In this document: positions 45,347-49,927 of the stretch, piece after piece
How positions within the stretch are numbered: position 1 is the first letter of the stretch
Layout of the letters: each line of letters starts with the position of its first letter
Source: Escherichia coli
GTDB taxonomy: Bacteria; Pseudomonadota; Gammaproteobacteria; Enterobacterales; Enterobacteriaceae
NCBI RefSeq assembly: GCF_001677475.2
Contig: NZ_CP015229.1
Strand: one strand, 5' to 3'
DNA: 64,000 nt
Notes under the pieces: generated by a model
Database searches by the model: none
What the model was told of the DNA's origin: nothing
The model's input: the letters and a program-made list of their open reading frames with translations, nothing else
Made by a program: the position numbers and the translations under genes

Positions 45347-45952
45347 ATGACGCTCTACCAGATAAAACCGCTCTTTCAGTCGCTGTTAAGGCCGACGATG
45401 TTTTGGCTTTATAAGCACCACGTTACAGCGAATCACATCACTCTTGCTGCACTGGCGCTTTCTCTTCTTACCGGTTTGCTGTTGATGTTGGTGTCACAAC
45501 CCATCCTCTTTATGCTATTGCCCATCGTGCTTTTTGTCCGTATGGCGCTTAACGCGCTGGATGGTATGCTTGCGCGTGAGTGCAATCAGCAAACACGGCT
45601 TGGGGCAATTTTGAATGAGACTGGCGATGTTATTTCCGATATTGCTCTCTATTTACCGTTTTTATTTTTACCGGAAAGTAACGCATCACTCGTGATACTC
45701 ATGTTATTTTGCACCATATTGACCGAGTTTTGCGGTTTACTCGTGCAGACGATTAACGGTGTTCGCAATTATGCCGGTCCATTTGGCAAAAGCGATCGCG
45801 CGTTAATATTTGGTCTGTGGGGGCTAGCCGTTGCCATTTATCCACAGTGGATGCAATGGAATAATCTTTTATGGAGCATTGCTTCAATTCTGCTTCTCTG
45901 GACTGCGATTAATCGTTGTCGGAGTGTGCTCCTGATGAGCGCTGAAAGATAA
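45347..45952 (+). CDS. ynbA: CDP-alcohol phosphatidyltransferase family membrane protein
   Basis: 201 aa; motif DGMLAR...G...DVISD; multiple TM segments. Confidence 0.85.
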   Translation: MTLYQIKPLFQSLLRPTMFWLYKHHVTANHITLAALALSLLTGLLLMLVSQPILFMLLPIVLFVRMALNALDGMLARECNQQTRLGAILNETGDVISDIALYLPFLFLPESNASLVILMLFCTILTEFCGLLVQTINGVRNYAGPFGKSDRALIFGLWGLAVAIYPQWMQWNNLLWSIASILLLWTAINRCRSVLLMSAER

Positions 45953-46848
45953 TGCTGGAAAAATCTCTGGCAACACTTTTCGCGTTGTTAATTTTAGCAA
46001 CGCTGATAAACCGTTTTCTGGTATGGCGGTTACCGGAGAGAAAAGAGGATGAAGTTACATTACGTATTCGTACCTGGTGGGGCATCGTCATTTGTTTTTC
46101 ACTGGTGATTTCAGGTCCACGCTGGATGACGTTGACGTTTTTTACGCTGATAAGTTTTCTGGCATTGAAAGAATATTGTACGCTTATATCCGTACATTTT
46201 CCGCGTTGGTTATATTGGGTTATTCCTCTTAACTATTTGCTTATCGGTTTTAATTGCTTTGAGCTGTTTCTGTTATTTATACCTTTGACTGGGTTTCTGA
46301 TATTAGCCACCTGGCGAGTTTTTGTGGGTGACCCCTCCGGTTTTCTGCATACCGTGAGCGCCATTTTTTGGGGCTGGATAATGACCGTTTTTGCCTTGAG
46401 TCATGCCGCCTGGCTATTAATGTTGCCAACCATAAATATCCAGGGCGGGGCGTTACTGGTGTTATTTCTTTTGGCGTTAACCGAGTCAAACGATATTGCA
46501 CAGTATTTATGGGGGAAATCCTGCGGCAGAAGAAAAGTGGTCCCCAAAGTCAGCCCAGGAAAAACGCTGGAAGGTCTGGTGGGGGGCGTAATCACCACCA
46601 TGATTGCGTCACTGATTATTGGACCGTTGCTGACACCGCTAAATACATTACAGGCATTATTAGCGGGTTTGTTAATTGGTATTAGTGGTTTTTGCGGCGA
46701 TGTAGTGATGTCAGCCATCAAACGAGATATTGGTGTTAAAGATAGTGGAAAACTATTACCAGGACATGGCGGACTCCTTGACAGGATTGACTCATTAATT
46801 TTCACCGCTCCGGTATTTTTTTATTTTATTCGCTACTGCTGTTACTGA
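45952..46848 (+). CDS. ynbB: CdsA-like phosphatidate cytidylyltransferase family membrane protein
   Basis: 298 aa; C-terminal CDS signature [28 protein letters not shown]; start overlaps ynbA stop. Confidence 0.85.
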   Translation: [298 protein letters not shown]

Positions 46849-46863
46849 AGGAAAATAGAGAAA

Positions 46864-48621
46864 ATGGAAAATTCACGCATCCCTGGGGAACATTTTTTTA
46901 CCACCAGTGATAATACAGCGTTGTTTTATCGGCACTGGCCCGCTTTACAGCCCGGGGCGAAAAAGGTCATCGTCTTATTTCATCGCGGTCATGAACATTC
47001 TGGTCGTCTACAACATCTCGTTGATGAACTGGCGATGCCAGATACTGCTTTTTATGCCTGGGATGCCCGAGGGCATGGAAAAACTTCGGGGTCGCGTGGT
47101 TATAGCCCGTCTCTTATGCGCTCAGTGCGGGATGTCGATGAATTTGTCCGTTTTGCTGCCAGCGACAGCCAGGTTGGACTGGAAGAGGTGGTTGTGATCG
47201 CGCAAAGCGTCGGCGCAGTGCTGGTTGCCACATGGGTTCATTATTATGCGCCTGCAATTCGCGGGCTGGTGCTGGCTTCTCCGGCCTTTAAGGTTAAATT
47301 GTATGTGCCGCTGGCACGTCCTGCGCTGGCGTTAGGGCATCGTCTGCGTGGTCTGTTTTTTATTACTTCCTATGTTAAAGGACGCTATTTGACCCACGAT
47401 CGGCAACGGGTGGCGAGTTTCAATAATGATCCGCTGATCACACGGGCGATTGCCGTCAATATCTTGCTCGATCTCTATAAAACGTCTGAACGTATTGTTA
47501 GCGATGCGGCGTCGATTACGCTCCCCACGCAACTTCTGATATCAGGCGATGACTATGTGGTGCATCGCCAACCGCAGATTGATTTTTATCAGAGATTACG
47601 TAGCCCTCTGAAAGAGTTACATCTGCTGCCTGGCTTTTATCACGACACGTTGGGTGAAGAGAACAGAGCGCAGACATTTGAAAAAATGCAAAGCTTTATT
47701 AGTCGTTTATATGCTAACAAATCGCAAAAATTTGATTATCAGCATGAAGACCGCACAGGACCATCAGCGGATCGATGGCGGCTCCTTTCTGGTGGACCCG
47801 TGCCATTATCGCCGGTTGATTTGGCGTATCGCTTTATGCGTAAAGCGATGAAATTGTTCGGGACGCACTCTGCGGGCCTGCATCTCGGAATGAGCACCGG
47901 CTTTGATTCAGGCAGTTCGCTGGATTATGTCTATCAAAATCAACCGCAAGGCAGTAACGCATTCGGGCGCTTAATCGACAAAATCTACCTGAACAGTGTT
48001 GGTTGGCGCGGTATTCGCCAGCGCAAAACCCATTTACAAATACTGATTAAACAAGCCGTTGCCGATCTCCACGCCAAAGGTTTAGCCGTCCGCGTGGTTG
48101 ACATTGCCGCAGGGCATGGACGCTATGTACTGGATGCGCTGGCGAACGAGCCTGCCGTATGCGATATTTTGTTACGTGATTACAGTGAGTTAAATGTTGC
48201 ACAGGGGCAAGAGATGATTGCCCAACGGGGAATGTCTGGGCGGGTGCGTTTTGAACAGGGCGATGCGTTTAACCCGGAGGAACTCAGTGCGTTAACTCCG
48301 CGGCCTACACTGGCGATTGTCTCTGGCCTGTATGAGCTTTTTCCCGAAAATGAGCAGGTAAAAAACTCACTCGCAGGTCTTGCCAATGCCATCGAACCGG
48401 GCGGCATTCTCCTCTACACCGGGCAGCCGTGGCACCCACAACTGGAGCTGATTGCCGGGGTGTTAACCAGTCATAAAGATGGTAAACCGTGGGTGATGCG
48501 CGTGCGTTCGCAAGGGGAGATGGATTCGCTTGTGCATGATGCCGGATTTGATAAATGCACACAACGGATTGATGAGTGGGGTATTTTTACGGTTTCGATG
48601 GCGGTGCGTCGTGATAACTGA
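46864..48621 (+). CDS. ynbC: Fusion protein: N-terminal alpha/beta hydrolase, C-terminal SAM-dependent methyltransferase-like
   Basis: 585 aa; nucleophile-elbow-like AQSVG; MTase motif-I-like [14 protein letters not shown]. Confidence 0.85.
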
Positions 48622-48634
48622 ACGCCGGAACGTA

Positions 48635-49927
48635 TTGCTACAAGGCGCTGGCTGGTTATTGTTGCTGGCCCCGTTTTTCTTCTTCACCTATGGATCTCTT
48701 AATCAGTTCACCGCGGTTCAGGACCTTAACAGCCATGATATCCCCAGTCAGGTATTCGGTTGGGAAACGGCGATCCCTTTTCTTCCCTGGACTATTGTTC
48801 CTTACTGGAGTCTGGATCTTTTATATGGATTTTCGCTGTTCATTTGTAGCTCGACATTCGAACAGCGCCGACTGGTTCACCGGCTTATTCTGGCAACGGT
48901 AATGGCCTGCTGCGGTTTTTTTCTCTATCCGCTGAAGTTTAGTTTTATCCGTCCTGAAGTGAGTGGGGTGACAGGATGGCTATTTTCGCAACTTGAACTG
49001 TTTGATCTGCCTTATAACCAGTCTCCTTCGCTGCATATTATTCTCTGCTGGCTACTTTGGCGTCACTTTCGTCAGCATCTGGCTGTGAGGTGGCGTAAAG
49101 TCTGCGGCGGATGGTTTTTACTCATCGCCATTTCGACGCTGACGACATGGCAGCATCATTTTATTGATGTCATCACAGGGCTGGCGGTAGGTATGTTGAT
49201 TGACTGGATGGTGCCCGTCGACCGTCGTTGGAATTATCAGAAACCTGATCAACGTCGAATCAAAATAGCAGTGCCATATGTCGTAGGCGCGTGCTCGTGC
49301 ATTGTGTTGATGGAGCTAATGATGATGATTCAGTTATGGTGGTCAGTCTGGTTATGTTGGCCAGTATTATCGCTACTCATTATTGGCCGTGGGTACGGTG
49401 GGCTTGGCGCGATAACAACAGGGAAAGATAGTCAGGGGAAACTCCCGCCCGCCGTTTACTGGCTGACATTGCCCTGGTGCATCGGGATGTGGCTATCTAT
49501 GCGTTGGTTTTGTCTTCGCCTGGAGCCGGTGAGCAAAATGACTGCTGGTGTTTATTTAGGGGCGTTTCCACGACATATTCCGGCACAGAATGCGGTTCTG
49601 GACGTCACCTTTGAATTCCCTCGCGGACGAGCGACAAAAGATCGACTCTATTTCTGTGTACCGATGCTGGATCTGGTGGTTCCGGAAGAGGGGGAGATCC
49701 GACAGGCCGTGGCGATGCTGGAAACATTACGCGAAGAGCAAGGCAGCGTTCTGGTCCATTGCGCTTTGGGATTATCGCGCAGTGCGCTGGTAGTGGCGGC
49801 ATGGTTGTTATGTTACGGACACTGTAAAACCGTTGATGAAGCGATTAGTTATATTCGAGCCAGACGCTCGCAAATTGTGCTTAAGGAAGAGCACAAAGCG
49901 ATGCTGAAATTATGGGAAAACAGGTAA
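48635..49927 (+). CDS. ynbD: Membrane phosphatase: PAP2-like TM domain plus C-terminal dual-specificity (CX5R) phosphatase domain
   Basis: Active-site [10 protein letters not shown]; N-terminal TM region with PSLH and HxxxD; start is uncertain (TTG 48635 gives 430 aa; GTG 48608/48611 or ATG 48530 are possible). Confidence 0.65.

Follow-up and report, generated by a model that had tools for sequence, protein, structure and literature searches.

The operon ynbABCD of Escherichia coli was examined within a window of 64,000 nucleotides, the whole stretch of DNA analysed here (contig NZ_CP015229.1, assembly GCF_001677475.2). It is an already known operon, annotated in RefSeq and not wholly uncharacterised. 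Four co-directional, tightly packed open reading frames (ORFs) occupy positions 45347-49927 on the plus strand, and the ORFs and their junctions match the four-gene operon described in an original prediction made from the letters alone. The first gene, ynbA (45347-45952), codes for a variant protein of the CDP-alcohol phosphatidyltransferase family with 201 aa. It meets ynbB (45952-46848), coding for a CdsA-paralogous cytidylyltransferase of 298 aa, in the junction TAATG, so that the two genes have one base in common, as had been predicted. A spacer of 15 nt and an AGGA precede the start of ynbC (46864-48621, 585 aa), which combines a monoacylglycerol-lipase/lysophospholipase-type alpha/beta hydrolase in the N-terminal half (46864-47718) with a class I S-adenosylmethionine (SAM)-dependent methyltransferase in the C-terminal half (47719-48621). 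The last gene, ynbD, codes for an N-terminal membrane domain of the PAP2 superfamily, predicted to be of the sphingomyelin-synthase/Aur1-like type (48611-49522), and a C-terminal dual-specificity, Cys-based phosphatase (DSP, 49523-49927). Whether ynbC and ynbD overlap, which had been thought probable, depends on the start codon of ynbD: the RefSeq-style GTG at 48611 yields 438 aa and an overlap of 11 nt, but the alternative TTG at 48635 yields none; the longest ynbD ORF starts at TTG 48530. All six domain assignments were upheld by Pfam profiles and by alignments to solved structures, with matches far beyond chance, the one to the PAP2 superfamily being weak. An equivalog-level assignment in NCBIfam or Pfam was reached by none of YnbA, YnbB, YnbC and YnbD.

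YnbA matched the family profile PF01066 weakly but significantly (E 7.9e-10 over residues 27-176) and the phosphatidylinositol-phosphate (PIP) synthase of Mycobacterium tuberculosis, 6h53, with an E value of 1.3e-7. The predicted family thus stood, but the motif proposed for it, DGMLAR...G...DVISD, was out of register and placed on the wrong glycine, and it missed the asparagines at the positions of D1 and D3. In the alignment of 6h53 (FDMLDGAMARERGGGTRFGAVLDATCDRISD) with YnbA (LNALDGMLARECNQQTRLGAILNETGDVISD), D1 corresponds to N69 (codon at 45551-45553) and D3 to N90 (codon at 45614-45616), while D2 (D72) and D4 (D94) are kept. The aligned pattern reads N69-A-L-D72-G-M-L-A-R-x8-G86-A-I-L-N90-E-T-G-D94 and departs from the four-aspartate signature D1xxD2G1xxAR...G2xxxD3xxxD4. 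In a solved CDP-alcohol transferase, Mg-1 is held by D1, D2 and D3 and Mg-2 by D3 together with D4, the latter being the presumed base (PMC6506517). N69 and N90 were invariant in 80 of 80 orthologues and the pair is kept in distant fusion proteins too; it is therefore a trait of the family and not a sign of decay. The best NCBIfam matches of YnbA all remained under the cut-off, with 73 of the required 180 bits for archaetidylinositol-phosphate (AIP) synthase, 47 of 170 for PIP synthase and 31 of 109 for PgsA. By sequence the nearest relatives are hence synthases that use inositol phosphate, e.g., M. tuberculosis PgsA1 (6h53). YnbA shares with them the class I CDP-alcohol transferase layout of six transmembrane helices, and has the basic residues GKSDR at the position of the ERPER stretch of PIP synthase. 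These synthases use a phosphorylated acceptor and their product then needs a phosphatase, a parallel to the scheme proposed below. Unlike them, YnbA lacks two of the metal-binding aspartates and scores far under the family cut-offs, and the ynb cluster is without a gene for an inositol-phosphate synthase. Single-chain fusions of YnbA with YnbC occur naturally, in proteins of 807 aa (P0123), 927 aa (P0151) and 656 aa (P0239). All three keep the Asn/Asn transferase motif, and P0239 has in addition AL in place of the AR of the motif.

For YnbB, the predicted CdsA signature is complete: the C-terminal motif S-x-[LIVMF]-K-R-x4-K-D-x-G-x2-[LIF]-P-x-H-G-G-x-x-D-R-x-D is present in full, and S-A-I-K-R-x4-K-D-x-G-x4-G-H-G-G-x-L-D-R-x-D-S was invariant in 67 orthologues. 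The protein matched PF01148 with an E value of 1.5e-69 and CdsA of Thermotoga maritima (4q2g) with 4e-23, and scored 111 bits against a cut-off of 385 bits for the E. coli CdsA equivalog. Overproduction of YnbB raises the level of the glycolipid MPIase about as much as overproduction of CdsA; ynbB is dispensable and its deletion leaves MPIase nearly unchanged (PMC6362211). YnbB has been described as a paralogue of CdsA that is induced by cold and dedicated to MPIase (PMC6362211; PMC11413397, citing Sato 2019 and Kamemoto 2023), and these two articles report that ynbB measurably affects MPIase and cold growth.

YnbC had been recognised as a fusion of a hydrolase, by the motif AQSVG, with a methyltransferase-like domain, and both halves were confirmed by strong profile matches. 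The N-terminal half matched Hydrolase_4 (E 1.9e-66) and the monoacylglycerol lipase Rv0183 of M. tuberculosis (7p0y, E 4e-15). S115 in the nucleophile elbow A-Q-S-V-G, D230 and H260 align with the Ser-Asp-His triad of Rv0183; these residues and the stretch HRGHEH were invariant in 81 YnbC sequences. The C-terminal half matched Methyltransf_20 over the full model length (E 1e-151). It has the Rossmann-type fold, the glycine-rich motif I and the acidic residue after strand 2 of class I methyltransferases, and the AlphaFold2 (AF2) model of this domain has a mean predicted local distance difference test score (pLDDT) of 94.2. A literature search for PF12147 or Methyltransf_20 found no paper. In a representative protein search, the hydrolase-methyltransferase fusion was traceable down to about 32 % identity. 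Among distant relatives, proteins of the P0155 type have a degenerate hydrolase half, with the serine replaced (GQGMA) and about 60 residues missing, next to an intact methyltransferase half, which suggests that the two activities of YnbC can be uncoupled.

In YnbD, the C-terminal domain carries the proposed CX5R site: it matched DSPc with an E value of 3e-26, the P-loop H-C-A-L-G-L-S-R-S conforms to H-C-x5-R-[ST] of Cys-based protein tyrosine phosphatases (PTP), the general-acid Asp is aligned and the fold is that of a DSP. PTPMT1, the mitochondrial PGP phosphatase of the DSP fold, is one of the known systems nearest to it, beside the lipid-directed PTEN/VSP phosphatases, and was among the top structural matches. 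A specific kinship with PTPMT1 was considered and rejected, as PTPMT1 is no nearer to this domain than protein dual-specificity phosphatases are. The match of the N-terminal domain to the PAP2 superfamily, also part of the original prediction, is weak (PAP2_3, E 3e-4; C3 motif of PLPP1, E 0.0035). The motifs C2 (P-S-L-H142) and C3 (S175-x6-H182-x3-D186) are present and invariant. Measured against the PAP2 consensus K-x6-R-P and S-R-x5-H-x3-D, the C1 motif reads [RKH]-x4-R-P and the Arg position of C3 is occupied by Val or Thr; this lack of the C3 Arg sets YnbD apart from the hydrolase branch of PAP2 proteins. In the AF2 model (pLDDT 92.6) the nearest folds are SMSr and Aur1, followed by LpxE and PgpB, so the membrane domain is, as modelled, closer to the sphingomyelin-synthase/Aur1 transferases of the superfamily than to PgpB. 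The identity to the sphingomyelin-synthase-related protein and Aur1 (PAP2_3 transferases), as well as to the bacterial LpxT, PgpB and LpxE, is only about 12 %, and E. coli, in contrast to the setting of these transferases, has no ceramide. The loop after the C3 helix contains six Lys or Arg residues, which by the positive-inside rule would place the PAP2 site in the periplasm and the DSP domain in the cytoplasm. YnbD has been listed as the fourth PAP2 protein of E. coli with no function ascribed (PMC7413402). Residues 216-435, which comprise the last transmembrane helices and the DSP domain, align with the N-terminal 232 positions of the 546-residue 'hypothetical protein' model NF009025/PRK12361; the membrane-anchored DSP module is thus also fused to another partner in other bacteria.

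A scan with one genome per species confirmed at least 422 candidate loci and returned 80, on which the following architecture counts rest. The 80 loci belong to Enterobacterales, Pseudomonas, Burkholderiales, Rhodocyclales, Bradyrhizobium, Acetobacteraceae and one metagenome-assembled genome (MAG) of Acidobacteria. Domain searches and a comparison of gene neighbourhoods had been suggested as checks; the former supported the domains, and the latter revealed a conserved core of ynbA, ynbC and ynbD, which adjoin in 78 loci, while the two others have A and C without D. In the 67-81 orthologues compared, which come from Gamma-, Beta- and Alphaproteobacteria and the Acidobacteria MAG, the catalytic motifs of all four Ynb proteins did not vary. 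Most loci add two genes: gene f codes for a PlsC-type acyltransferase that bears the motifs HX4D and FPEGTR, and gene e for a small membrane protein (about 140 aa) without a family match. The order A-C-D-e-f-B prevails (41 loci, mostly Pseudomonas), followed by A-B-f-C-D-e (10 loci, including Citrobacter, Hafnia and Superficieibacter) and A-C-D-e (7 loci, all Morganellaceae). Homologues of e and f were found neither between ynbB and ynbC, nor after ynbD, nor elsewhere in the window. Judged by gene content, Escherichia ynbABCD appears to be a reduced four-gene form of a cluster that mostly has six genes. Eight of the 41 A-C-D-e-f-B loci, all eight from Pseudomonas, have a second PlsC-like gene just upstream of ynbA, giving f-A-C-D-e-f-B (L037, L039, L041, L047, L048, L053, L060 and L076). 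Citrobacter sp. Cu233 has two copies of the cluster (L003, L013), one an intact A-B-f-C-D-e; in the other, with 65 % YnbC identity, ynbA and f are truncated and ynbD is split, and this copy appears to be decaying.

The six-gene form leads to a described system of Pseudomonas aeruginosa. The genes PA2541-PA2536 constitute arc1A-F, 'antagonism resistance cluster 1', of which five genes are lipid-related and four homologous to enzymes of phosphatidylglycerol (PG) synthesis; the cluster is induced by Gac/Rsm and needed to survive attack by Burkholderia thailandensis with its type VI secretion system (T6SS) (PMC8926400). Without it, resistance to the lipase effectors TseL and Tle1 is incomplete (PMC12663445). 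PA2536 carries the annotation 'probable phosphatidate cytidylyltransferase' (PMC8190622), and PA2537 codes for a homologue of acyltransferases (PMC4086342). The N-terminus of PA2541 deduced from published primers, MISVYQL, resembles MISIYQLKP of the Pseudomonas YnbA orthologues, and the PA2537/PA2536 junction deduced likewise, GAGGCCTGAGATG, equals the f/B junction of four of the loci (L041, L048, L053 and L060). The six-gene synteny occurs in about 30 Pseudomonas species, to whose counterparts YnbC is 56-59 % identical. The 120 matches listed in a protein search with a Pseudomonas YnbA as query did not include P. aeruginosa. From published descriptions and annotations together with the two short primer-derived fragments, in place of a full alignment with PAO1, the Pseudomonas ynb-type cluster apparently corresponds to arc1. 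Both systems contain the same four enzyme types, a CDP-alcohol transferase, a lipase/methyltransferase, a PAP2/DSP phosphatase and a CdsA paralogue; the arc1 gene order fits A-C-D-e-f-B, and both are expressed at a low basal level and induced by a stress regulator. With four of the six arc1-type genes, Escherichia differs in the lack of the PlsC-type acyltransferase and the small membrane protein, in the position of ynbB as second instead of last gene, and in a regulation by H-NS and BglJ-RcsB instead of Gac/Rsm. The defence phenotype against T6SS and lipases was described for P. aeruginosa, and none of the papers in the library searched links ynb genes to type VI secretion. A functional analogy exists to LplT/Aas, the lysophospholipid repair system that acts once phospholipase A has attacked; the resistance of P. 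aeruginosa to lipase effectors draws on aas as well as on arc1A (PMC12663445). The proteins are unrelated, however, and LplT/Aas works by flipping and acyl carrier protein-dependent reacylation.

With about even confidence, we consider ynbABCD to be the Escherichia four-gene form of a widespread accessory glycerophospholipid cluster, apparently arc1 in Pseudomonas, that is silent in ordinary growth and induced by envelope or antagonism signals, and that provides a second membrane-bound lipid line beside CdsA/PgsA/Pgp, renewing or modifying a lipid of the inner membrane. In such a line, YnbB would convert phosphatidate and CTP to CDP-diacylglycerol, from which YnbA, with its less acidic metal site, may pass the phosphatidyl group on to an alcohol that is anionic and probably phosphorylated. 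In the cytoplasm, the Cys-based phosphatase domain of YnbD would strip the terminal phosphate, comparable to PTPMT1 acting on phosphatidylglycerol phosphate (PGP) in mitochondria. At the cytoplasmic face, the lipase domain of YnbC could deacylate lyso- or damaged lipids and its methyltransferase domain could methylate the head group or the released carboxylate. The membrane domain of YnbD, predicted to face the periplasm, would act on the outer leaflet by transferring or removing a phospho-head group. On balance, the pathway might serve the renewal or modification of an inner-membrane lipid after phospholipase-type damage, which in Escherichia would be protective. This reading is favoured by the intact, invariant catalytic residues, the purifying selection described below, the A-C-D synteny, the YnbA-YnbC fusions and the match to arc1. 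The kinship of YnbA with inositol-phosphate-using synthases counts in the same direction, as does the complete PTP fold of the YnbD DSP domain with PTPMT1 among its top structural matches. A further reason is the regulation: the region between ydbD and ynbA (45178-45346, plus strand), presumed to hold the promoter and regulatory sites of ynbABCD, is AT-rich (169 bp with 37 % G+C versus 51 % in the whole window), and the ynbA promoter, mapped experimentally in K-12, is activated by BglJ-RcsB, whose site has its centre 65-68 bp upstream of the transcription start (PMC3950696). A scan for consensus sigma-70 sites found none in this spacer.

The original prediction had suggested a self-contained route to a CDP-activated lipid. 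A lipid route is still the best reading and was strengthened by the YnbA-YnbC fusions and the synteny in 80 genomes, but the Escherichia form, being reduced from a larger cluster, may not be self-contained. Several other points weigh against the proposal made here. Without the acyltransferase f and the small protein e, any repair cycle in Escherichia would be incomplete; without two of the signature metal-binding aspartates (PMC6506517), ordinary transferase chemistry is not assured for YnbA. YnbB does not complement cdsA (PMC6362211), and YnbD overexpression rescues neither the PGP-phosphatase mutant pgpABC nor C55-PP-phosphatase mutants (PMC7413402). The accumulation of polyphosphate by a ynbC::Tn mutant was confined to a single strain background (PMC2435150). 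A 2025 study described the contribution of arc1 as only auxiliary beside Arc3A, the correspondence to arc1 is based on short fragments, and the locus is missing from a part of the species. None of the cluster's members has been seen to yield a lipid product, and E. coli ynb mutants are not known to have an envelope or competition phenotype. The earlier statement that no product or phenotype had been established is nevertheless out of date, in view of the published work on YnbB and MPIase, the BglJ-RcsB promoter, the complementation tests with YnbD and the arc1 phenotype.

Within the species the operon is variably present. Of 5426 complete E. coli genomes, 4768 matched the locus and have it annotated as ynbA-D, in agreement with the prediction that the genes are conserved and annotated; it was missing from the other 658 (12 %), and a further 485 genomes covered less than 80 % of it. 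The best identity to complete RefSeq E. coli genomes was 98.1 % for positions 20000-44000, 97.5 % for ynbA-D and 95.5 % for hrpA, and divergence along positions 20000-54686 forms a mosaic, with dS values (synonymous divergence) of 0.05-0.11 in the ynb genes versus 0.20 in hrpA. None of these genomes is thus a close match, and the window probably derives from a divergent lineage of Escherichia or from Shigella, which the collection compared does not contain. One E. coli protein record (P0002) contains YnbB and YnbC as a single product of 889 aa, probably because the ynbB stop codon was lost or through an artefact of sequencing. In comparison to E. coli 12009, the ratio of nonsynonymous to synonymous divergence (dN/dS) was 0.10-0.24 for the ynb genes, 0.06 for azoR and 0.015 for hrpA; ydbD was left out of this comparison on account of an indel offset.

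On another reading, the Escherichia operon is an evolutionary remnant, silenced, two genes short of the six and without a physiological role today. Most other lineages keep the acyltransferase and the small membrane protein, which Escherichia has lost, the locus is absent from 12 % of the complete genomes and partly covered in others, dN/dS is 4 to 15 times that of hrpA, robust mutant phenotypes are lacking, and the promoter needs BglJ, which is itself silenced by H-NS (PMC3950696). A remnant is nonetheless unlikely: the four ORFs are intact in the window with every catalytic residue conserved, the translational coupling is preserved and dN/dS values of 0.10-0.24 still indicate purifying selection. 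Effects of ynbB on MPIase and cold growth are described in PMC6362211 and PMC11413397, and ynbD was scored as a fitness gene in a bacteraemia screen of uropathogenic E. coli (UPEC) (PMC3855560).

Slightly less probable again is an operon dedicated to MPIase, in which YnbB, possibly with YnbA, makes N-acetylglucosamine (GlcNAc)-PP-diacylglycerol ('compound I') from CDP-diacylglycerol and GlcNAc-1-phosphate, while the other genes process the glycolipid. The rise of MPIase upon YnbB overproduction, about as large as with CdsA, and the description of YnbB as an MPIase-dedicated, cold-induced paralogue (PMC6362211, PMC11413397) would fit. A CDP-alcohol transferase encoded beside ynbB is a chemically natural catalyst for the transfer of a phosphatidyl group to a sugar phosphate, and the two Asp-to-Asn changes of YnbA may reduce the negative charge where an anionic nucleophile would bind. 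However, deletion of ynbB barely alters MPIase, an effect that the authors called marginal or auxiliary (PMC6362211), and in the published model compound I is made by CdsA/YnbB alone. A glycosyltransferase or sugar-nucleotide gene was present in none of the 80 cluster loci. Moreover, the cluster occurs commonly among Pseudomonas, Burkholderiales and Rhodocyclales, Morganellaceae have it without a nearby ynbB, and MPIase is reported as essential, whereas all ynb genes are dispensable.

The housekeeping PG pathway of CdsA, PgsA and PgpA/B/C uses the same enzyme superfamilies in the same logical order of reactions, four Arc1 proteins are homologous to PG-synthesis enzymes according to Ting et al. 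(PMC8926400), and DSP-fold PGP phosphatases such as PTPMT1, a top structural match of YnbD, exist. A plain back-up line for ordinary PG that yields no new lipid is still improbable, because YnbA reaches only 31 bits against the PgsA cut-off of 109, is nearer to inositol-phosphate synthases and deviates from the PgsA metal-ligand pattern at two invariant positions. Besides, YnbB and YnbD do not complement cdsA and the pgpA pgpB pgpC mutant, respectively (PMC7413402 for YnbD), and the lipase-methyltransferase fusion and the SMS/Aur1-like domain, which ynbABCD adds to the pathway, would be left unexplained. The faintest chance is given to a YnbA family that forms a distinct class of CDP-alcohol transferases taking a phosphate-bearing nucleophile (sugar-1-phosphate, Pi or PPi) and building a pyrophosphate-linked diacylglycerol (DAG) lipid such as GlcNAc-PP-DAG or diacylglycerol pyrophosphate (DGPP), which the opposed YnbD domains trim or hand over on either side of the inner membrane; such an acceptor is conceivable because Asn at D1 and D3 removes two negative charges, and, if true, the MPIase data on YnbB would be reconciled with the arc1 defence and a new lipid-carrier chemistry would exist in Proteobacteria.

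The flanking genes of the operon, ydbD, azoR and hrpA, are the same as in E. coli. Upstream, ydbD (42865-45177, GTG start, 770 aa) is annotated in RefSeq as 'DUF2773 domain-containing bactofilin', has no relation to lipid enzymes and is not of the same length as the copy in E. coli 12009; the AT-rich spacer parts it from ynbA. Downstream, ynbD and azoR are convergent and separated by a perfect 11-bp inverted repeat at 49937-49963, assigned to no strand, which reads GATGTGGACTG-AACTA-CAGTCCACATC and is likely a bidirectional terminator. The surrounding 65 nt fold at -27.4 kcal/mol. A terminator scan did not call this hairpin, since it has no T-run.

With six catalytic domains aimed at membrane lipid, ynbABCD is one of the few multi-gene enzyme operons of E. 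coli K-12 that remain without a known product. Our analysis adds to its description the link to arc1, the reduced gene set of Escherichia, the non-canonical signature of YnbA and the transferase-like PAP2 domain. Both the Asn-for-Asp pattern of YnbA and the SMS/Aur1-like domain in YnbD suggest a chemistry beyond the PG pathway of the textbooks, and the operon context raises the question whether the effect of YnbB on MPIase is primary or a side effect of extra CDP-diacylglycerol. Through arc1, ynbABCD gains a concrete candidate function, an inducible renewal or modification of lipids that would blunt phospholipase toxins, and the question is brought into the best genetic and lipidomic system available, E. 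coli K-12.

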